64,000 nt of DNA from Acidobacteriota bacterium (lineage in GTDB: Bacteria > Acidobacteriota > UBA6911), in the NCBI GenBank assembly GCA_963664705.1, contig OY761556.1:5504001-5568000 (forward strand), read 5' to 3'. Below are positions 570-46,375 of the stretch, one piece after another. The translations under genes and the position numbers were made by a program. The notes under the pieces were generated by a model that saw only the letters and a list, made by a program, of their open reading frames with translations, was not told where the DNA came from and ran no database searches. Each line of letters begins with the position of its first letter. Within the stretch, counting starts at the first letter, position 1.

Positions 570-3500
570 ATGAATTCCAGATTGCAGGCTTTTTGTAAAA
601 CGCTCATGGAGGCCGGCTGGCTAGCGGCCGTGGCGATCATTCCGCTGTTCTTTAACGCCTCTTCCATTCAGACATTTGAGCCGGGCAAGTCATTTGTGCT
701 CAAAAGTCTGGCGCTGATTTCCGGGGCAGCCTGGCTGCTAAGGCGAATAGACGAAGGCGGCCTGCAAATCGGGCAACAATTTAAGTCTCTCATGCGGAAG
801 CCGTTGGTATTTCCTGTCTTCATTCTCGCGGGAGTTTATCTGGTGAGTTCCGCGCTTTCGGTGGCGCCTCATCTTAGCTGGTGGGGTGCGTACTATGAAG
901 CCCAGGGGACAGCGACATTCCTGTGCTATGCAGTTTTTTTCCTTATTGTCCTGACCGAATTGCGCAGCCCCGACCAGGTGAACAGATTGCAATACACCAT
1001 TGTGTTGACCAGCATTCCTGTCGCAGGCTATGCGGTGACGCAGCGTTTTGGAGGAGACCCCTTTCGGTGGGAAGATGCATTTGATGGCCGTTCCGGTGGG
1101 AGCATGGGAAATCCCATTTTTCTGGGCGGCTATCTGATTATGGTAATTCCCCTGACTTTTTGCCGGCTCATTGATGGGCTAAAAGTGTTCCGAAGTGTCT
1201 CTGACCGACGGCCTGTTTTAGTGCGCGCTTGTTTTTGCGGCCTGGCTTTGGTGCTACAGGTTCTGGCTCTTCTTTATACCGAAAGTCGCGGGCCCCTGCT
1301 GGGCTTGGCTGTCGCCGGCTATTTTTGCCTTTCGATTTATCTGATTTTGAGCAAATCGCCTCGACAATCCGGCGCCGCGATTTCTGTTACCCCTGTTTTG
1401 TTGGGAGTTTTTATTCCTGTTCTTGCGCTGGCGGCGGTCCTCCTGGCTTCACGCTTTTTCCCGGGACATGTTTTTGCATGTCTTGAGGTTGTGGTTGCCA
1501 TCATCGCGATTTTGTTTTGGAGCATCTGGAAAACCGCGTGGGGCCGGTCCTGGCTTTGGCTGACATTTCTCGTCCAACCCCTGGTTCTATCTCTTGCGGT
1601 TGCGGTTATTCCGGCGAACATTGCATTCAGAAGTCAGGGGCCGATCGCACCTTTCGGCCGCATTACGCAGCTCTCGGATCCGGGAGTTAAATACAGAGAG
1701 GGTCTTTGGGAGACCGGGGCGCGTTTTCTGAAGGATGGCCCCAAAGCAGATCTGCCGGATGGAACTCCCGATAGCTATCACGTTTTGCGTTCCGTTCTGG
1801 GCTATGGCCCGGAATGTACGTGGTTCGTTACCAATACACTCGCGACTCCTTCATTGATTCGCTACCGCTTCCAGGAATCTGAGAATCGGATGCACAATGA
1901 GATATTTGACGATCTCATCACAACCGGCTATGCCGGGACAGTGGCATATCTGATCCTTGTGGCCAGTGCTTTTTACTACTCTCTTCAGTTTGTCGGATTT
2001 TCCTTTGAGCGGCGCGCCAGGATTGGTTTCGTCGTGCTTGCCATTATCGGGGTCCTTGCCGGCTTATTGATTCCGTGGATGGCCGGCATCCCGCAGTTCA
2101 TAGGCCTTGGGATTACGGTGGGGCTGTTGGCCGGTATTTTTGCATCGATTCTCTGGAGCGGGATTCGATCGCAAGGTGGAGTGGAAATTAGCGCGCGTCA
2201 ACTGCTGGTTCTTGGAATCCTTGGCGCGCTCACCGCTCACTTTATTGAGATTTCAGTAGCGGTTTCCGTCACGTCTACCCGTGTCTATTTCTATCTGTAC
2301 CTGGCGCTGATTGCCGTCTGTTGTTCCGGAGATTGGGTCGCGCAGGAACAGCCCGCAAAGCGCGCCAAAGCCAAATCCTTGAATGCAGAAGCGAATCCAT
2401 GGGTAGCCTTTGCCGCGATCGCCTCCGTTATCGTGTTCGTGCAAACCTGGTGTTTTACCTTTAGCCCCGGAAATGAAACGAGCGCGATCGAGCTTTTCTC
2501 CAAATGCTGGTTCGGCACTTTCGATGGAGGTCAGACCCGGGTCCACACGGCAGTATTGTTGATGCTGCTGACGATTTTTGCCGGTGCGGCCCTTACGTAT
2601 GCCGAGGCTTCCAAGACATCCGCTTGGAAATCCATCATCGGCTTTTCCGCCTTGCTGGCGGGGGTGTGGCTCATTGCGGGCCTGATGTCGGCCTACTTTT
2701 GGGCAGGGTTGGATAACCCAACGCCCCTTGATTACTCCCAACATGCCGAAGCGCGGATGACCCTGTTCGTATTTGGCTGTTTGTTTCTGATCGCAGCAGT
2801 AACTCTTATTCTGCGCGCTGCCGGGCTGCCCGGATCAAAGGATAATTCCGTTCGGAGTTTCGCTGTAATCGCCGGAATTCTCCTGATCATTGGGGCCGGG
2901 ATAGGGACCTGGCGATTGACACTTCGCCCGGCATGGGCAGATATTGCGGCACGCACCGCGCGCATCTATGAATCCACTGGAGATGCTCGCTCTGCCTCCC
3001 TTTTGTACGAAAGAGCCGTAGGGCTGTCGCCCCAAGTGATCCAATACCATTTCTATCTCGGACTGGCACAGATTAAAGCTGCGGGTTTCGATCGTATACG
3101 GTTGGACCAGGCGCGGGCAACCCTGCAAGAAGCCCAAGCTCTGAATGCTTTGGATCCTGTTGTCTACCGGACTTTTGGCACATACCATCTGTATGTGGGG
3201 GAACATTCCTCTGATCCGCAGACTCGGAATACGGAAATTACCCAGGCGATAGGATATTTTGAAAAGGCGCAGAAACTGGCTCCCGGCTATCCCAATGCGT
3301 ACGATGAAAAAGGACGATGCCTTTCACTCCTGGGCAGCTATGAACAGGCGGAGAATGTTTTTCAAAGATCGATGCAGATGCATCCGGATTACTGGCTCAC
3401 TTACAAATACAGGGGTGAGATGCAGTATCGGCAAAGAAATTTTGAGGCTGCGCTTCAAAGTTTCAACAAGGCAGCGGGACTAAATCCAAATGACCTGGAC

Positions 3501-3755
3501 TGCCCGAAAAACGCCGGCGTCCTGCTCGTTCTTCTGGGCCGGCCGGGCGAGGCCATTCGCATAACTCTGGAAGCGCTAAAAAAGGCCCCCAATGATTCCA
3601 TGCTGCTGGCAAACGTCGCGTCCTGGTATTTCCTCGCAGGAGATTACAATGCAGGCACCGATTTTGCGAAGCGTGCCTATGACCTAATTCCAGGCGCATC
3701 TAAAGGTAGTTTTGCGGATTATAGGGAGAAGCTGCAGAATAAAACGTGGAACTAG
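570..3755 (+). CDS. O-antigen ligase/oligosaccharyltransferase (Wzy_C-type) polytopic membrane protein with C-terminal TPR repeats
   Basis: 1061 aa with many TM helices. Motifs GNPIFLGGYL, TESRGPLLGL, GYGPE and RMHNEIFD are typical of the WaaL/PglL-like family. The last ~270 aa are TPR-like helical repeats. Confidence 0.8.
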   Translation: MNSRLQAFCKTLMEAGWLAAVAIIPLFFNASSIQTFEPGKSFVLKSLALISGAAWLLRRIDEGGLQIGQQFKSLMRKPLVFPVFILAGVYLVSSALSVAPHLSWWGAYYEAQGTATFLCYAVFFLIVLTELRSPDQVNRLQYTIVLTSIPVAGYAVTQRFGGDPFRWEDAFDGRSGGSMGNPIFLGGYLIMVIPLTFCRLIDGLKVFRSVSDRRPVLVRACFCGLALVLQVLALLYTESRGPLLGLAVAGYFCLSIYLILSKSPRQSGAAISVTPVLLGVFIPVLALAAVLLASRFFPGHVFACLEVVVAIIAILFWSIWKTAWGRSWLWLTFLVQPLVLSLAVAVIPANIAFRSQGPIAPFGRITQLSDPGVKYREGLWETGARFLKDGPKADLPDGTPDSYHVLRSVLGYGPECTWFVTNTLATPSLIRYRFQESENRMHNEIFDDLITTGYAGTVAYLILVASAFYYSLQFVGFSFERRARIGFVVLAIIGVLAGLLIPWMAGIPQFIGLGITVGLLAGIFASILWSGIRSQGGVEISARQLLVLGILGALTAHFIEISVAVSVTSTRVYFYLYLALIAVCCSGDWVAQEQPAKRAKAKSLNAEANPWVAFAAIASVIVFVQTWCFTFSPGNETSAIELFSKCWFGTFDGGQTRVHTAVLLMLLTIFAGAALTYAEASKTSAWKSIIGFSALLAGVWLIAGLMSAYFWAGLDNPTPLDYSQHAEARMTLFVFGCLFLIAAVTLILRAAGLPGSKDNSVRSFAVIAGILLIIGAGIGTWRLTLRPAWADIAARTARIYESTGDARSASLLYERAVGLSPQVIQYHFYLGLAQIKAAGFDRIRLDQARATLQEAQALNALDPVVYRTFGTYHLYVGEHSSDPQTRNTEITQAIGYFEKAQKLAPGYPNAYDEKGRCLSLLGSYEQAENVFQRSMQMHPDYWLTYKYRGEMQYRQRNFEAALQSFNKAAGLNPNDLDCPKNAGVLLVLLGRPGEAIRITLEALKKAPNDSMLLANVASWYFLAGDYNAGTDFAKRAYDLIPGASKGSFADYREKLQNKTWN

Positions 3756-3777
3756 GCTTTACCTGCGGGTGATAAAA

Positions 3778-4048
3778 CCTGACTTGACCGAAATAGTAAC
3801 CCCATTAACCGCGAAGACCTCGAAGACCGCAAAGAAAATATTCTTGCGGTTATCGTTCTCGCCAGATCATACGCTGGATTCCATCCTTGAAGCCTCATAC
3901 ATCAGGCACCGCTGAATCGACAATAGGATGCGCAACTTCTTTCCTATCCATCACGCCATCTCATTGCCCGGCAGCAAAATGAGCCAATAGATCTTTGCGG
4001 TCTTCGAGGTCTTCGCGGTTCAAAGAAAAAACTGATAACTTAAAAAAG
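3778..4048 (-). mobile_element. Miniature inverted-repeat element, copy A (decayed GxxExxY cassette)
   Basis: Perfect 29-bp inverted repeats at 3807-3835 (aaccgcgaagacctcgaagaccgcaaaga) and 3992-4020. Block-wise homologous, in reverse orientation, to the four units at 43985-45317. Confidence 0.85.
3850..3951 (-). pseudogene. Internally deleted GxxExxY protein gene remnant
   Basis: The minus strand reads MDRKEVAHPIVDSAV from the ATG at 3951. Shifted frames then give QRCLMYE and FKDGIQRMIWRER*, resembling the N- and C-termini of GxxExxY proteins. Confidence 0.7.
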
Positions 4049-4105
4049 TTATAGAGTGAAGCTGCAGAACAAAACGTGGAACTAGGTTTTACCTGCGGGT
4101 GATAA

Positions 4106-4159
4106 AACGCCACGAATTACGCAGATGCTCTTTGCGAACTCTGCGTAACCCGTGGCGTT
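4106..4159. repeat. Palindromic hairpin (9-mer microrepeat type), probable bidirectional terminator between convergent genes
   Basis: aacgccacgaattacgcaga ... tctgcgtaacccgtggcgtt. Confidence 0.65.
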
Positions 4160-4172
4160 GTTGTTTCAGCCA

Positions 4173-6878
4173 TCAATTCGATTTTGGATCCGGCGTGGGA
4201 GTCTGCTTATTTCCCGGTGCTTCCGTCTTCGGAGTTTTTTCCTTACTGGTGTTTTTCTCCACCTTCTTTTCCTGGTTCGCTCTTTCTTTCCTGGCGTCCT
4301 GGATCTCTTCCGCCCTCTCCTTATCCTTCTCGTTCTGGAATTTGCGGACGTGCTTCAGGGAATCCTTCAACTCCTGAGACATGTCATGAAGTTTTTCCGG
4401 CGTGCGGATCACGTGCGGAGTAATCAGAATGATCAGTTCGGTTCTGGCGGCATTTCGGGTTGTTTGCCCGAATAGGGCTCCCAGGATCGGAATCTGGGAA
4501 AGGAATGGGATCCCGCTCCGCGATTCATTACTGCTGTCACGAATCAACCCCGCGATCGCGACTGTTTCGCCATCTTTTACGGATAGCGTTGTGGATACGC
4601 TTGTTTTGGAAAAACTGGGAGCACTGGTTTCTCCGATAGGAGTGCTGGCTCCCGGGGCGCTGATTTCCTGCACCAGGTCCATGGTAACGGAACCTGAAGC
4701 AGAGATGCGGGGAACCACGATCAGCGTAATCCCGGTGTCGCGGTATTCCACACTGGTCGTGCTGCCACCAACGGAAGGAGTAAAACTCGTGCCCGGATAG
4801 GGTATTTCAGAGCCGACCATGATTTGAGCCTGCTGCCCATCAAGCGCAAGAACGGAGGGCGATTCCAGCACCTTTACTTTTGTTTTCAGTCGAAGCGCTT
4901 CAATGGAGGCCATGATTTCCCGGGCGTTGCCGACAGGAACAAAAGTCTTTGCAGTCAACAAGCCATCCGAAGTGAGATCTCCGGTGGTTAATTTGGTATC
5001 TCCCTTAGCCTGGAGTGCGGCCGCCACGCCAAAATTCAGGCTGTCGGTCAAGTCCACTTCAAAAATTCGTGCATCGATCAATGCCTGCCGAGGCATGACA
5101 TCCATTTTCTTGATGGTTTCAGAGATATAGGCGTAGTCCGCCGAAGTAGCCTGGATAATGAGCGAATTGTTGATGTCATCCACCACCATGCGGACGGTAT
5201 CCTGCAATCCCGTGAGCTGGCCGCCGCGCAAAACCTGGGAGCTGATGGTCCTCTGATTATTGAGTTGAGGCCCGAGTTGCCGGCCGGCGCTGAAAGCGCC
5301 TCCGCCAAATCCTCCGTATCCTCCGCTATATCCCCCCCCATATCCGCTCGATGATCCCATGCTGGAACCGCCACCAAAAAGCCCTGATCCGGACTGGCCC
5401 GCAACCGAACCTCCGCCAGTTGCGAGACTGGTTCCGGAACCAAAGGTGCTCTGGCCGCTTCTGTTTATTCCGGCGGTTCCTGTCGGACTTGTGCTTCCCC
5501 CGCCAGATCCTCCCGCATTGCTGCCCGTGGATCCCTCGCCGCCATACAAAGCCGAAAGCATCATGGCAATATTGGAGGCTGTTGAATTTTCAACAATGTA
5601 TACGTAGGTTTGAATGTTTTTTGCGGAAGACGAGTCGAGCTCCCTAATCCAGCCCTTTACTTCCTCAAGCGCTCTCTTGGAGCTGGTCATCACGAAAATT
5701 GCATTGATGCGATCAAGGGAAACAAAAGAAACGCCAGTGGCCGAATCTTTTGATCCGGATCCATAAAGCTTTTTGAGATCATCGACCACGTCTGATGAAG
5801 AATTGTTTTGGACCTTGACCAGCTCAACCAAATCCGGGTCGAGATAGTTGTTGTCGAGCATCCGGACGATCTGAAGAATCCTGGAAATACTGTCCGTGTA
5901 ATCGGTCAGGATAAGCATATTCAGCCGCTCGAATGGCATGATGGCTCCTCCCTCGGTCATGAACAGTTTTATAGGTTCAATCAGATCCTTTACCGGCACA
6001 TATTCAACACGGATGATATTCGTGGTCAGCCGCGTCGATTTTGGGCTTTCCTCTTTGGCCGCAGGAGCAGGGGCGGTCAGTTTTTCGCCTTTTCTTGCGG
6101 CTTCCTGCTTGGCCAGAGTTTGAAACGTGGAAAGGGTGCCCGGATTTGCTCCCGCCGGTCCCATCGAAGGAGGCATGTTTGCCGGTAATTTGGCCGGTGA
6201 AGATGGCGATTCCTTAACGCCCGTTGAGCCGGGCAAGTACTCGATGATATCGACGCCTCTCTTTAAGGCCGAAGAAATCGGAATGATCTGGTAGATACCC
6301 CCCTGTCGTACCAGGGCGGCATTGTTGTTCTTGAGTATGATATTGAACAGAGGCAGGACGTCATCCTTAGAAAGGGCTTCCGAAGTGAGAAGATTCACGG
6401 TCCCCTTCACTTCCGGATCCACGATCACGGGAGTCAAACCCAGCATGCTGGTAATCTGGTTGACGAAATCATACAGATCCGCGTTCTCGAAATTCAGCTT
6501 TACTTTTCCAGCCTGTGAAGTGGAAGCCGGAACGGCAGGCGCTACCGGAGGGGCTGTGGGTTGCGGCTGCGGCGGCTGAGGCTGAGCCGATTGCGGCTGA
6601 GGCGGTGCCGGCTGTGGAGGCACCGGCTGCGAAGGCACGGGAGTTGCAACCGGGCGTGGCTGCTGGGCCGGCGGGACCTCCGGGTTCGGTTTGGCAATAG
6701 GCTGCACTTGCAGCAGTTGCTTCGAGAGGATTTCCAGTGCGCGCCGCCTGGTTTCGTCTGTACTGGGAAGACGCGCTGGATCCTGGGATGTCCATGCTAT
6801 CGAAGACAAGCCGCTTAAGAACAGCGCGGCTAGAATTACGATGATGGCTTTCCTTAAAATCTTAGTACTCATGGCCAT
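4173..6878 (-). CDS. gspD: Type II secretion secretin GspD
   Basis: Signal peptide, Pro-rich linker, N0 domain (LNFENADL), N3 domain with a Gly/Ser loop, and secretin domain (LSQIPILGALF...RTELIILITPHVI). Start set at the ATG at 6878, which follows the SD gaggagagg. Confidence 0.93.
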   Translation of the reverse strand: MAMSTKILRKAIIVILAALFLSGLSSIAWTSQDPARLPSTDETRRRALEILSKQLLQVQPIAKPNPEVPPAQQPRPVATPVPSQPVPPQPAPPQPQSAQPQPPQPQPTAPPVAPAVPASTSQAGKVKLNFENADLYDFVNQITSMLGLTPVIVDPEVKGTVNLLTSEALSKDDVLPLFNIILKNNNAALVRQGGIYQIIPISSALKRGVDIIEYLPGSTGVKESPSSPAKLPANMPPSMGPAGANPGTLSTFQTLAKQEAARKGEKLTAPAPAAKEESPKSTRLTTNIIRVEYVPVKDLIEPIKLFMTEGGAIMPFERLNMLILTDYTDSISRILQIVRMLDNNYLDPDLVELVKVQNNSSSDVVDDLKKLYGSGSKDSATGVSFVSLDRINAIFVMTSSKRALEEVKGWIRELDSSSAKNIQTYVYIVENSTASNIAMMLSALYGGEGSTGSNAGGSGGGSTSPTGTAGINRSGQSTFGSGTSLATGGGSVAGQSGSGLFGGGSSMGSSSGYGGGYSGGYGGFGGGAFSAGRQLGPQLNNQRTISSQVLRGGQLTGLQDTVRMVVDDINNSLIIQATSADYAYISETIKKMDVMPRQALIDARIFEVDLTDSLNFGVAAALQAKGDTKLTTGDLTSDGLLTAKTFVPVGNAREIMASIEALRLKTKVKVLESPSVLALDGQQAQIMVGSEIPYPGTSFTPSVGGSTTSVEYRDTGITLIVVPRISASGSVTMDLVQEISAPGASTPIGETSAPSFSKTSVSTTLSVKDGETVAIAGLIRDSSNESRSGIPFLSQIPILGALFGQTTRNAARTELIILITPHVIRTPEKLHDMSQELKDSLKHVRKFQNEKDKERAEEIQDARKERANQEKKVEKNTSKEKTPKTEAPGNKQTPTPDPKSN

Positions 6879-19926: not shown

Positions 19927-20031
19927 ATCGGGGACGTCCCACCCATTCGCCGGTTTTTTGAGCGGTGTATCGAATGGAGTCCCGCCTATGCACCCCGTAA
20001 AAAGCAGGTGAATGAGCGGGACGTCCCCGAT
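19927..20031. repeat. REP-like inverted repeat pair between secA and guaB
   Basis: atcggggacgtcccacccattcgcc ... ggtgaatgagcgggacgtccccgat. Confidence 0.7.
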
Positions 20032-27733: not shown

Positions 27734-27808
27734 AACTATACCTCGAAGACCCGAAGGCTCGAAGAATTCCTTTGAGTCTTCGAGTCTGCGAGGTTCAGGG
27801 GGTATAAT
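27734..27808. promoter_or_regulatory. Divergent lepA/uvrB -10 boxes separated by a 53-bp palindrome
   Basis: TATAGT on the minus strand at 27734-27739 and TATAAT on the plus strand at 27803-27808. Hairpin cctcgaagacccgaaggctcgaag...ctttgagtcttcgagtctgcgagg at 27741-27793. Confidence 0.55.
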
Positions 27809-42472: not shown

Positions 42473-43930
42473 ATGAGAAAAAGCGGAATTTTGCTGCACC
42501 CCACTTCGCTGCCCGGCGAATTGGGTGTCGGTGATCTGGGGAAATGGGCTTACCGTTTTGTCGACTTCCTGGCGGACAGTGGACAGAAACTCTGGCAGAT
42601 TCTGCCGCTTGGCCCGCCGGGCATGGGATACTCCCCTTACCAGGCCTATTCCAGCCATGCCGGTAACCCGTTGTTGATCAGTATTCCGCCCCTGATAGAG
42701 CAGGATCTGCTGCCACCGGAAGTGTTACAGAACCTTCCGCCGCGACCCGACTCCAAAGTCGATTTTGATGCCGTTATTCCCTTCAAAGAGAAGATTCTAA
42801 AGCAGGCTGCCCGCAATTTTTTCTCAGGGAAAGGCATTGCCTGGCAACGCGAGTTTGCCGAATTCTGCGCGCAAGCCTGTTCATGGTTGGATCCCTATGC
42901 GGAATTTTCCGCTTTGAAGCGGGCCAATTTCGGAGTTGCCTGGACACAATGGGATTCCGCAATAAAATCCGATCCTCAGGACGAACTGGATGAGAAGTTT
43001 ATCCAGTTCCTGTTTTTCCGGCAGTGGACTTCGCTGAAGAGGTACTGCAACGATCGGGGCATTGCCATAATCGGAGACATTCCCATCTTCATTGCGCATG
43101 ACAGTTCCGATGTGCGAGCCAACCCTGGATTGTTCGATCTGGATGAAGAGTACAATCCGAGAAATGTCGCCGGTGTTCCCCCGGACTATTTTAGTAAAAC
43201 CGGTCAGCGTTGGGGCAATCCTCTATACCGCTGGGAAGCGATGGAAAAAACCGGCTTCCGCTGGTGGATCGGCCGTATCGAATCCATGCTGAATATGGTG
43301 GATGTAATTCGCCTGGATCACTTCCGCGGATTTGAAAAATTCTGGGAAATTCCGGCTGAATCAGAAACGGCCGTGGGCGGCCACTGGGTGGAGGGTCCCG
43401 GCGATCGCCTGTTCAAGGCCCTCTCCGAAGCGCTGGGAACGCTGCCCTTCATTGCGGAGGATCTGGGGTATATCACTCCGGAGGTGCATCAATTGCGGGA
43501 TCGCTGGGGCTTTCCCGGTATGCGGGTCCTGCAGTTCGCGTTCGGTGACGAATCGCGGGATAATCCGCACAAGCCCTATAATTATGTTCAGAATTGTGTC
43601 GCCTATACCGGCACGCATGATAACGATACCACCGGCGGATGGTTTGCCTCCCAAAGCAGCCAGTTGCGCTACGAACAGGAAAACGCGTTGAGATACATGG
43701 GAAGCGACGGCAGAGACCCGGTGTCGGATTTGATCCGGCTACTCATGGCGTCGGTTGCCGATACCGTGATTGTCCCGATGCAGGATTACCTGGGGCTGGG
43801 TACGGAAGCGCGCATGAATGTGCCGGCGACAACAGGAAACAACTGGAATTGGCGCATGCGCGAAGATCAACTGCGTCCCGATCTCGCAGCCAGACTGCGA
43901 GAGCTAAACCGCACCTACGGCCGCTCCTGA
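42473..43930 (+). CDS. malQ: 4-alpha-glucanotransferase (GH77)
   Basis: GILLHPTSLP, AGVPPDYFS, RLDHFRGF, AEDLG, YTGTHDNDT. Confidence 0.97.
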   Translation: MRKSGILLHPTSLPGELGVGDLGKWAYRFVDFLADSGQKLWQILPLGPPGMGYSPYQAYSSHAGNPLLISIPPLIEQDLLPPEVLQNLPPRPDSKVDFDAVIPFKEKILKQAARNFFSGKGIAWQREFAEFCAQACSWLDPYAEFSALKRANFGVAWTQWDSAIKSDPQDELDEKFIQFLFFRQWTSLKRYCNDRGIAIIGDIPIFIAHDSSDVRANPGLFDLDEEYNPRNVAGVPPDYFSKTGQRWGNPLYRWEAMEKTGFRWWIGRIESMLNMVDVIRLDHFRGFEKFWEIPAESETAVGGHWVEGPGDRLFKALSEALGTLPFIAEDLGYITPEVHQLRDRWGFPGMRVLQFAFGDESRDNPHKPYNYVQNCVAYTGTHDNDTTGGWFASQSSQLRYEQENALRYMGSDGRDPVSDLIRLLMASVADTVIVPMQDYLGLGTEARMNVPATTGNNWNWRMREDQLRPDLAARLRELNRTYGRS

Positions 43931-43984
43931 CTTCTGTCTCCTGCTACTAATACACCGGGAAACACAACTCTCGATATTTCGGGA

Positions 43985-45317
43985 TCAAATCAGGTCCCAT
44001 AAATAAATGGTGTTGATTAGTTTTTATGTTTGAACCGCGAAGACCTCGAAGACCGCAAAGATTTATTGGCTCATTTTGCGGTGGGAAAGAAGTTGCGCAT
44101 CATATTGTCGATTCAGCGGTGGCAATCCATACAGCGCCAGATTGCTGGAGGCCGTTTCTCGGCGGTGCCTGATCTGGCGAGAACGATAACCGTAAAACCT
44201 GAAAAAATATTTTCCTTCGCGGTCTTCGAGGTCTTGGCGGTTAATGGGATTACTAATTCGGTCAAGTCAGAAAAAATATTTTCCTTCGTGCCTTGCGCTG
44301 CTAATACACCGGGAAACACAACTCTCGATATTTCGGGATCAAATCAGGTCCCATAAATAAATGGTGTTGATTAGTTTTTATGTTTGAACCGCGAAGACCT
44401 CGAAGACCGCAAAGATCTTTTGGCTCATTTTGCGGTGGGAAAGAAGTTGCGCATCATATTGTCGATTCAGCGGTGGCAATCCATACAGCGCCAGATTGCT
44501 GGAGGCCGTTTCTCGGCGGTGCCTGATCTGGCGAGAACGATAACCGTAAAACCTGAAAAAATATTTTCCTTCGCGGTCTTCGAGGTCTTGGCGGTTAATG
44601 GGATTACTAATTCGGTCAAGTCAGGTGCCTTGCGCTGCTAATACACCGGGAAACACAACTCTCGATATTTCGGGATCAAATCAGGTCCCATAAATAAATG
44701 GTGTTGATTAGTTTTTATGTTTGAACCGCGAAGACCTCGAAGACCTCGAAGACCGCAAAGATCTTTTGGCTCATTTTGCGGTGGGAAAGAAGTTGCGCAT
44801 CATATTGTCGATTCAGCGGTGGCAATCCATACAGCGCCAGATTGCTGGAGGCCGTTTCTCAGCGGTGCCTGATCTGGCGAGAACGATAACCGTAAAACCT
44901 GAAAAAATATTTTCCTTCGCGGTCTTCGAGGTCTTGGCGGTTAATGGGATTACTAATTCGGTCAAGTCAGGTGCCTTGCGCTGCTAATACACCGGGAAAC
45001 ACAACTCTCGATATTTCGGGATCAAATCAGGTCCCATAAATAAATGGTGTTGATTAGTTTTTATGTTTGAACCGCGAAGACCTCGAAGACCTCGAAGACC
45101 GCAAAGATCTTTTGGCTCATTTTGCGGTGGGAAAGAAGTTGCGCATCATATTGTCGATTCAGCGGTGGCAATCCATACAGCGCCAGATTGCTGGAGGCCG
45201 TTTCTCAGCGGTGCCTGATCTGGCGAGAACGATAACCGTAAAACCTGAAAAAATATTTTCCTTCGCGGTCTTCGAGGTCTTGGCGGTTAATGGGATTACT
45301 AATTCGGTCAAGTCAGG
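43985..45317 (+). mobile_element. Miniature inverted-repeat element copies B1-B4 (43985-44288, 44339-44625, 44676-44971, 45022-45317)
   Basis: Each copy has aaccgcgaagacctcgaagaccgcaaag ... cttcgcggtcttcgaggtcttggcggtt and ends tcggtcaagtcag(g); homologous to copy A. Confidence 0.85.
44086..44189 (+). pseudogene. GxxExxY gene remnant (repeated at 44440-44543, 44786-44889 and 45132-45235)
   Basis: KEVAHHIVDSAVAIHTAP, then a frameshift to (G)LLEAVS(R/Q)RCL, fused to IWRER*; resembles the recalled pattern IVD-A--IH--LGPGLLESVY--CL. Confidence 0.75.
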
Positions 45318-45329
45318 TGCCTCGCGCTG

Positions 45330-46250
45330 CTAATACACCGGGAAACACAACTCTCGATATTTCGGGACACGACCCTTGACTACATCGAAGTATAGAGTGC
45401 GCAGCTTGCCTGTGATCGGCCCCATCTGTCCGGATCCGATCGGTCGATGATCGACCTTCGTAATCGCCGCTATCTGGACGCCGGTTCCACAGAAGAAGAT
45501 CTCATCCGCCAGGTAGATTTCGGTTCGATCGATAGGCCGCTCCACCACCTCAACACCCAGTTCATCGCGAAGGAGCATCATAACCGTTCGTCGGGTGATC
45601 CCTTCAAGAATGTTGTCTGTAACGGGTGGTGTGCACACAACTCCCTTGCGGACCATGAAGAAATTCTCCGCGGACCCCTCGGCTACATGCCCGTCCTGAT
45701 TCAAAACGATGGCTTCGTCATACCCTGATCGCTGCGCATCGGTTTTGACAAAGGCCGAGTTTACATAGGATCCGGCGATCTTGCCGCGTGCGGGGATCAT
45801 ATTGTCATCGATGCGCCTCCAGGAGGATATCGTGACGTGGCTCCCTTCTTCATTTTCCACGTAGGATCCAAAGGGGATCGCTATCATCGATATTTCCGGA
45901 TGGAGATCGTGGAGACGGACTCCAATGATTTCATCCGAGAAGTAAGCGATTGGCCGGATGTAGCAGTCGGTGCGGTAGTTTTCTGCCTTGATCAGATCCG
46001 CGAGATAACCCGTGAGCTGAGCTTCCGAATAGGGGAACTGCATTAACAACAGCTTTGCAGATTCCAGGAAACGACGGAAATGGTCCTGCGGCCTGAAAAG
46101 GAATAGCTGGTTTTCCGCTTCATTCCAGTATCCACGCAAACCGCCGAATACACCCGTTCCATAGTTAAGAGTATGGGTCAGAACACCAATTTTAGCTTCG
46201 CTATATGGAACAATCCGCCCTTTGAAAAATGCAAAATGAGGCAGAGTCAT
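45330..46250 (-). CDS. ilvE: Branched-chain amino acid aminotransferase
   Basis: LNYGTGVFGGLR, KIAGSYVNS, EGSAENFF, ILEGITR; ATG at 46250 follows the SD aaggagg. Confidence 0.95.
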   Translation of the reverse strand: MTLPHFAFFKGRIVPYSEAKIGVLTHTLNYGTGVFGGLRGYWNEAENQLFLFRPQDHFRRFLESAKLLLMQFPYSEAQLTGYLADLIKAENYRTDCYIRPIAYFSDEIIGVRLHDLHPEISMIAIPFGSYVENEEGSHVTISSWRRIDDNMIPARGKIAGSYVNSAFVKTDAQRSGYDEAIVLNQDGHVAEGSAENFFMVRKGVVCTPPVTDNILEGITRRTVMMLLRDELGVEVVERPIDRTEIYLADEIFFCGTGVQIAAITKVDHRPIGSGQMGPITGKLRTLYFDVVKGRVPKYRELCFPVY

Positions 46251-46375
46251 TGAACATCCTCCTTCGTCCACACCGGCTAATGCACAGGGGTGTAACGGCT
46301 ATCATACCACGTATCGTCGAAACGCTGTTATTGGTTAACTTGGAGTGACGTGTTTGCCGGTCCCGCTTTGGATCC

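Follow-up and report, generated by a model that had tools for sequence, protein, structure and literature searches.

The window, the whole 64,000-nucleotide stretch that was analyzed, corresponds to positions 5504001 to 5568000 of contig C1, the single 6.89-Mb contig of an Acidobacteriota genome (G000) whose assembly has 6% contamination. Two loci within it hold short elements flanked by long direct repeats that include the end of a gene (Table 1). At locus A (3719 to 4107), the duplication takes in the last 12 codons of the host gene, with the TAG stop codon at 3753 to 3755. The two target copies are 93% identical (55 of 59 positions), with mismatches at 3725, 3727, 3740, and 3757. Of the three differences that fall in codons, two are synonymous, a pattern that simple aging of the copies would produce. 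The first-pass annotation described a 60-bp duplication with four mismatches that included the TAG. The duplication, its mismatches, and the enclosed stop codon are real, and the element already starts at C3778, which leaves a duplication of 59 bp. The repeats of loci A and B scored 98 and 95, respectively, compared with a best score of 42 among 300 random genome positions that served as the chance control, none of which reached the threshold of 50. Both locus A junctions were crossed by short-read contigs with zero differences. Further short palindromic or heptamer-type repeats are present in intergenic DNA of the window at 4110 to 4150, 19927 to 20031, and 27740 to 27760.

Table 1. Features of the two loci, in window positions
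Locus	Feature	Position	Strand	Remarks
A	Host gene, large protein with C-terminal TPRs	570..3755	+	ORF, Pfam TPR matches
A	Target copy 1, 59 bp	3719..3777	+	Holds gene end
A	MITE, 271 bp	3778..4048	+	Longest ATG ORF 40 aa; IRR intact, IRL absent
A	IRR with 13-bp terminal repeat CCTGACTTGACCG	3778..3803	+	24/26 nt identical to autonomous IS at G000:C1:6057793-6059434
A	GxxExxY cassette remnant, internally deleted	3801..4005	-	DNA match to both full-cassette ends
A	Left arm of internal 29-bp inverted repeat of GxxExxY cassette	3807..3835	+	Arms also flank full gene
A	Right arm of 29-bp inverted repeat	3992..4020	-	
A	Filler, about 12 nt, between truncated element and target copy 2	4037..4048		No other match in genome
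A	Target copy 2	4049..4107	+	Non-coding; 55/59 vs copy 1
A	GspD-type secretin gene	4173..6878	-	Convergent neighbor
B	malQ-type 4-alpha-glucanotransferase gene	42473..43930	+	Convergent neighbor
B	Outer target copy	43935..43984	-	46/50
B	Array of four MITE copies	43985..45317	-	IRR tips 44271, 44625, 44971, 45317
B	Insert of 17-18 nt at one IRR tip	44271..44288		Copy of element-internal sequence near 44203-44220
B	Inner target copies	44289-44338, 44626-44675, 44972-45021		Within array; 49/50 each
B	Target copy holding ilvE end	45318..45367	-	Stop 45330-45332, 12 nt from IRR tip
B	ilvE-type class IV aminotransferase gene	45330..46271	-	

Locus B (43935 to 45367) is a tandem array in which the four elements alternate with five target copies of 50 bp. 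All five agree at every one of the 38 ilvE coding bases, and 4 of the 12 bases past the stop differ in the outer copies. The initial description of a 38-bp exact duplication extending to about 50 bp with mismatches was confirmed, although it had overlooked that there are four tandem elements and five target copies. The resemblance that it reported between a locus B junction and the other end of the element is also real. Its source is an internal second copy of the right end of the insertion sequence (IRR), present in other copies too. All four units share one truncated left junction within this internal IRR copy and lack the left end (IRL), so it is more likely that the units were amplified after insertion than that four insertions took place. 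The templated insert at one IRR tip suggests template switching during amplification. The inner junction was covered at approximately three to five times the depth of the flanks in three short-read runs of one sample (X1, 3.1 to 3.4; X3, 4.6 to 5.0; X4, 3.6), and the differences between runs are a weak hint of variation in the copy number of the array. Runs X1 and X2 are both from this sample, and X1 to X4 may come from the source sample of the genome. A contig from a second study bridges the inner junction, reaching back 346 bp.

The short-read contigs contained no empty allele from the same species at either locus. A search of five congeners for an orthologous empty locus A site recovered the end of gspD in all five and the TPR gene beside it in none, which leaves no orthologous site for comparison. 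In one congener, G005, a separate insertion of this element lies immediately beyond the stop codon of gspD (L167/L179, C5:1-700); the gene end is the same as at locus A and the other neighbor differs. The first-pass annotation had proposed looking for both repeat copies in relatives without the element. For the ilvE end, no such pair was found: the final 36 nt of the gene are single in each of the 19 congeners that gave an ilvE match, one of which has a weak match to a terminal inverted repeat (TIR) downstream.

The right end of the window elements is identical at 24 of 26 nt to that of an intact insertion sequence elsewhere in the genome (C1:6057793-6059434). This parent IS is 1,642 bp long, with perfect 13-bp terminal repeats (CCTGACTT) and one 490-aa ORF, the only copy of the transposase in G000 according to tblastn. 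The transposase matched the model for IS1634 family transposases (NF033559) with 325.8 bits, relative to a cutoff of 100, and was far below the cutoff for the IS4 and IS5 models. Copies on actinobacterial plasmids, annotated as IS1634 family, are 37 to 45% identical. A 2008 paper gives the IS1634 family a length of 1,500 to 2,000 bp, ends of the form C-----YT, and 5- to 6-bp repeats (PMC2266710). The parent IS fits this size range, has the single ORF, and has the C-----YT form at both termini. Residues D170, D248, Y394, L397, E401, and K408 are invariant in 11 transposase sequences and fit the DDE triad of the family together with a YREK motif that usually lacks the R. This pattern suggests that D170, D248, and E401 form the catalytic triad. 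At position 188, the parent transposase has an R in a column in which all 10 relatives have a G. The parent transposase was found in none of 24 congeners and in one of 16 genomes of the same class (26% identity), most of these genomes being fragmented. No sequence in the PDB matched the transposase profile.

The flanks of the parent IS share just a 22-bp repeat, and 2.1 kb, including another IS, separates its left copy from IRL. That intervening element (G000:C1:6055689-6057779), an approximately 2-kb IS-like sequence that abuts the parent IRL and has four copies at 99% identity, is embedded in a family of palindromic repeats that has dozens of partial copies. Sixteen of the 25 IRR loci described below fall in the stretch from 5.0 Mb to 0.3 Mb, which is close both to the minimum of the GC skew at 5.29 Mb and to the parent IS at 6.06 Mb.

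Prokaryotic MITEs are short, non-coding, multicopy, intergenic elements that share their ends with a resident IS and usually have repeats of 2 to 12 bp. The window elements (271 to 296 bp; longest ATG ORFs of 40 and 51 aa) are non-autonomous, and on sequence grounds, they are MITE derivatives of the resident IS1634-family IS and thus a known case rather than a parallel one. Inside, they match the two ends of a full GxxExxY cassette at G000:C1:2163575-2163940 with 83 to 86% DNA identity (83 to 84% for the locus A remnant). The full gene encodes a 122-aa protein that scored above the cutoff for both TIGR04256 (135 bits) and PF13366 (125 bits). The internal deletion of the cassette differs at most loci, and in the window the gene ends alone remain. 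An internal 28-nt motif marks 28 cassette loci in G000, 18 of which have IRR; IRR is also present at seven loci without the motif, including the parent IS. In the 18 cassette copies with IRR, this end is always intact and IRL is found in two. The position of the left truncation is variable, with a cluster in the internal IRR copy. The window copies, which lack IRL, are therefore truncated relics. The order of a complete copy is right end, cassette, internal second right end, short spacer, and left end (C1:5237764; G005 L163 and L167), and the G000 MITEs with both ends are at C1:5237764 and C1:6229768. The congener G005 has a cassette-bearing element with both TIRs, in which IRL is kept at six loci and a complete GxxExxY gene is found at two (L161 and L165; 91 to 92% identity). 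Of the five congeners searched, G002 had arm-like matches only and three had none. No title retrieved in a literature search on GxxExxY concerned its flanking repeats or its capture by an IS.

Other arrangements of the cassette or its arms were also observed. At G000:C1:4472220-4473160 (L001), a second GxxExxY gene has two tandem copies of itself behind it, both with internal deletions and with short heptamer-like repeats at their bounds, and no IS1634 end was found near them; such cassettes may have a separate route of amplification and deletion. A seven-unit tandem array with a 250-bp period (G000:C1:5193415-5195097) consists of a cassette variant that keeps the left IS end and has a different sequence on the other side. 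In G002 (C358; L160), a longer direct repeat encloses arm-like repeats with two small ORFs between them, which suggests cargo other than GxxExxY for the arm repeats.

A 26-nt scan for IRR defined 25 loci in G000, with the inner ends of tandem arrays counted once per locus. This set includes C1:5237764, which was added by hand because its end carries a 1-nt deletion, and excludes an IRR-like match at C1:6077521 that the scan missed. A repeat of 48 to 158 bp begins 0 to 1 nt from the IRR tip at 13 of the 25 loci, relative to none of the 300 random positions; it is on the outer flanks at 10 of these and is found in full only between tandem units at the other three. A long repeat is absent from the remaining 12. 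The first-pass annotation had named a lack of flanking duplications at most other copies as evidence against its reading, and the near-even split comes close to that outcome. In the G000 copies with both ends, the repeats are 82 and 105 bp and begin exactly at IRL. Nine of the 13 repeat loci, both window loci included, have no IRL. The 13 repeats are unlike in sequence and length and have no common core, which upholds the initial view that the duplications are not carried attP sites; site-specific attP/attB integration was rejected for the same reason. LINE-like retrotransposition, prompted by the combination of one precise and one ragged end, was rejected because the precise end is that of a DDE IS. 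The insertions showed no orientation bias relative to the replication strand (12 of 25).

Autonomous relatives have similar repeats. Among relatives from genome collections with both TIRs and more than 100 bp of both flanks, 7 of 12 have repeats of 81 to 294 bp abutting both ends. In one genome (G092), seven of nine identical copies have perfect repeats of 40, 86, 99, 104, 169, 243, and 318 bp, and the others have a 5-bp repeat in a repeated region and no repeat, respectively. Overall, the repeats measured among autonomous relatives range from 20 to 318 bp, are perfect, and abut both ends. Repeats of 5 bp were found at three distinct loci among relatives. In G005, the repeats are 44 and 36 bp in place and approximately 29, 54, and 75 bp when flanks are paired across contigs. 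In metagenomes, 7 of 67 copies have a repeat (2 of 18 among those with 300 bp on each side), a low rate that may be due to flank swapping in short-read assemblies, as is visible in G005; these contigs were not taken as informative about how frequent the repeats are. Repeat length showed no helical periodicity at 10, 10.5, or 11 bp and none at 3 bp (Rayleigh p = 0.19 to 0.42; n = 24). From these other copies, we infer that the window copies were also born with two ends.

The sequences directly outside the ends revealed a weak preference. Among 106 elements with paired ends, after removal of duplicate flanks, TAnnA was directly outside 32 of 88 left ends and 27 of 91 right ends, compared with a background of 1.4%; because the elements are related, p-values for these counts are overstated, the insertion sites being separate events. 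In the 24 copies of relatives with long repeats, five of which are weaker calls (L058, L063, L069, L085, and L128), TAnnA was found at 7 left and 7 right ends, and in the G000 MITEs, it was found outside 3 of 25 right ends (background 0.7%). At least two of the three TAnnA bases were present at 14 left and 12 right ends of the 24 long-repeat copies. Seven copies had such a site at both ends, the number expected if the ends choose their sites independently, and five had it at neither, which illustrates the weakness of the half-site. The base after the cut was a pyrimidine in 31 of 40 cases (20 of the 24 long-repeat copies). The 5-bp repeat of one relative (L104) fits the motif on both strands. 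The full motif is present at both ends of the 59-bp repeat of locus A, as TAnnA at the element-tip end of target copy 1 and as its reverse complement at the start, and at neither end of the locus B repeat.

We consider it probable (roughly 0.8) that the repeats are target duplications of the MITE, formed when its ends were joined to the target at two separate half-sites, leaving an interval of tens to hundreds of bases that host synthesis copied. In DDE chemistry, each 3' end joins one strand of the target. The transposase of the IS would have acted in trans on a MITE that had both ends and a captured GxxExxY cassette. With somewhat less confidence, we propose that the two 3' ends attack one strand apiece, each at a separate TAnnA|Y half-site, and that strand-displacement or fork synthesis then duplicates the intervening 20 to 320 bp. 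If both ends joined at one site, a 5-bp repeat would result, and two sites on a looped or slid target would give a long, variable one. Displacement synthesis across the interval would produce repeats that are long and variable, perfect at birth, and abutting both tips, as was observed. A gene end caught in the interval would survive because the whole interval is copied, and insertions would then persist near the 3' ends of genes with no need for stop codon recognition. Most G000 copies would later have lost the left end and part of the cassette by deletion. The loss of IRL at 9 of 13 loci is read in this way because the G005 and autonomous copies keep IRL. Slippage or unequal recombination at the repeat could have amplified element-plus-target units into arrays such as that of locus B. 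The initial suggestion of either widely staggered nicks or primed copy-in is thereby narrowed: staggered nicks are favored, because both ends of autonomous elements abut the repeat and each has its own half-site, and copy-in is disfavored. Another study reports that an IS1634 transposase binds the beta clamp (PMC4549789), which would make fork-coupled fill-in plausible.

The apparent association with stop codons was evaluated with gene positions from our own hexamer model (5,360 genes). Centering on stop codons, as proposed in the first-pass annotation, applies to both window loci and does not extend to the genome, in which the stop codon of the adjacent gene lies inside 3 of 13 repeats (p = 0.29; 14% expected for random intergenic points). 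The gene on the IRR side points to the element at 18 of 25 loci (null, 42%), and 13 of the loci are in convergent gaps (null, 14%), or 14 under a simpler rule. Two other repeat families in G000 are more weakly enriched in convergent gaps (10 of 34 [29%] and 13 of 34 [38%] intergenic loci); two further families have just four loci each. The simplest reading of the bias toward gene 3' ends is survival bias, with the long duplication rebuilding any gene end that is caught. The centering on stop codons is coincidence plus survival.

One alternative is that insertion was one-ended, with the transposase joining only IRR to the target, at TAnnA, and the freed 3' end of the target copying the element before switching back at a microhomology. 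Such an event would yield the long repeat at the same time as the truncated left end and the deletions inside the element, and it would account for the constant retention of IRR, the rarity of IRL, and the clustering of truncations in the internal IRR copy. A junction overlap of approximately 8 nt at C1:1526182 (0 to 4 nt elsewhere, judged by eye), the unmatched filler at locus A, and the templated insert at locus B can be read in the same way. However, microhomology is also a usual mark of later spontaneous deletion, which counts against this reading. Both TIRs of the autonomous relatives abut the repeat with a half-site at each, G005 keeps IRL at six loci, and locus A itself has the full half-site at both repeat ends. 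Furthermore, IRR is approximately 30 nt from the nearest cassette arm and IRL is more than 80 nt from the other, distances at which decay alone favors the loss of IRL. We therefore regard one-ended birth as unlikely. If it did occur, it would represent a replicative copy-in route for a DDE element, in which a hairpin-bearing cassette was copied and tandem arrays were bred.

The remaining alternatives fare less well. The GxxExxY cassette, a PD-(D/E)xK-type sequence with its own inverted repeats, might be the mobile unit that makes the repeats, with the IS end as a passenger. Three of the 10 cassette copies without a recognizable IRR do have flanking repeats (42, approximately 46 to 66, and 24 bp), and the tandem, internally deleted copies beside the second GxxExxY gene (C1:4472310) have no IS end near them. 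This is nevertheless quite improbable, because the repeats stop at the IS tip rather than at the cassette arms, cassette-free ISs and IS-ended elements have the same repeats, and the window copies encode no intact nuclease. Slightly more doubtful still is recognition of stop codons or terminators by a machinery that would place its insertions where the ORF is spared. Such recognition could explain the stop codons within the repeats at A, B, and C1:6229768 and the excess of gene ends and convergent gaps, and the half-site starts with TA, as TAA and TAG do. However, stop codons within the repeats are no more frequent than the null allows, the distance from stop to tip varies from 12 to more than 200 nt, and the enrichment of the two other repeat families in convergent gaps is what selection against promoter disruption predicts. 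Least credible is an origin of the repeats or the array in faulty assembly. The genome is a single-contig assembly with contamination, its reads may be those of X1 to X4, and no contig spans a whole locus, but several positions distinguish the copies, both locus A junctions are crossed by contigs, and the elevated depth of the locus B inner junction is accompanied by a bridging contig from a second study.

The independent half-site at each end offers a concrete, testable model for the long repeats. G000 supplies one transposase together with natural substrates of 300 to 400 bp. Long repeats would make insertions at gene ends harmless and would render them excisable or amplifiable by recombination. 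A literature search found no later mechanism for the long repeats, most subscription journals being outside its coverage, and the accessible portions of PMC3053259 and PMC12274833 contained nothing on repeat formation.

The phenomenon itself is known as the habit of IS1549 and IS1634, here found in a MITE, and the half-site analysis is a useful addition. In the 2008 paper, these two elements are reported to have variable repeats of 8 to 514 bp, with no mechanistic model proposed (PMC2266710). Their mention in the first-pass annotation proved apt, as the transposase of the resident IS is of the IS1634 family by HMM and the repeats are long and variable. The elements described here have in common with IS1549 of Mycobacterium smegmatis and IS1634 of Mycoplasma mycoides, the long-repeat members of the family, a transposase family assigned by HMM, a length of 1.6 kb, C-----YT ends, and long variable repeats (20 to 318 bp as measured here). 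The long-repeat trait of this subgroup is displayed by the complete MITEs (82 and 105 bp) and the G092 copies, the parent IS having only its displaced 22-bp repeat. In contrast to IS1549 and IS1634, the window copies are non-autonomous, contain a GxxExxY remnant, lack the left end, and can form tandem arrays. Ordinary IS1634 elements are exemplified by ISPfe2 of Paracoccus, for which the accessible text gives 13-bp inverted repeats and a 6-bp direct repeat (PMC3281130). The elements described here have the single DDE ORF and 13-bp terminal repeats in common with them, and some relatives have 5-bp repeats, but most of the repeats are 10 to 60 times longer than those of ordinary members and vary between copies. 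The window element resembles other prokaryotic MITEs and IS derivatives with passengers, apart from its long repeats and its GxxExxY passenger.
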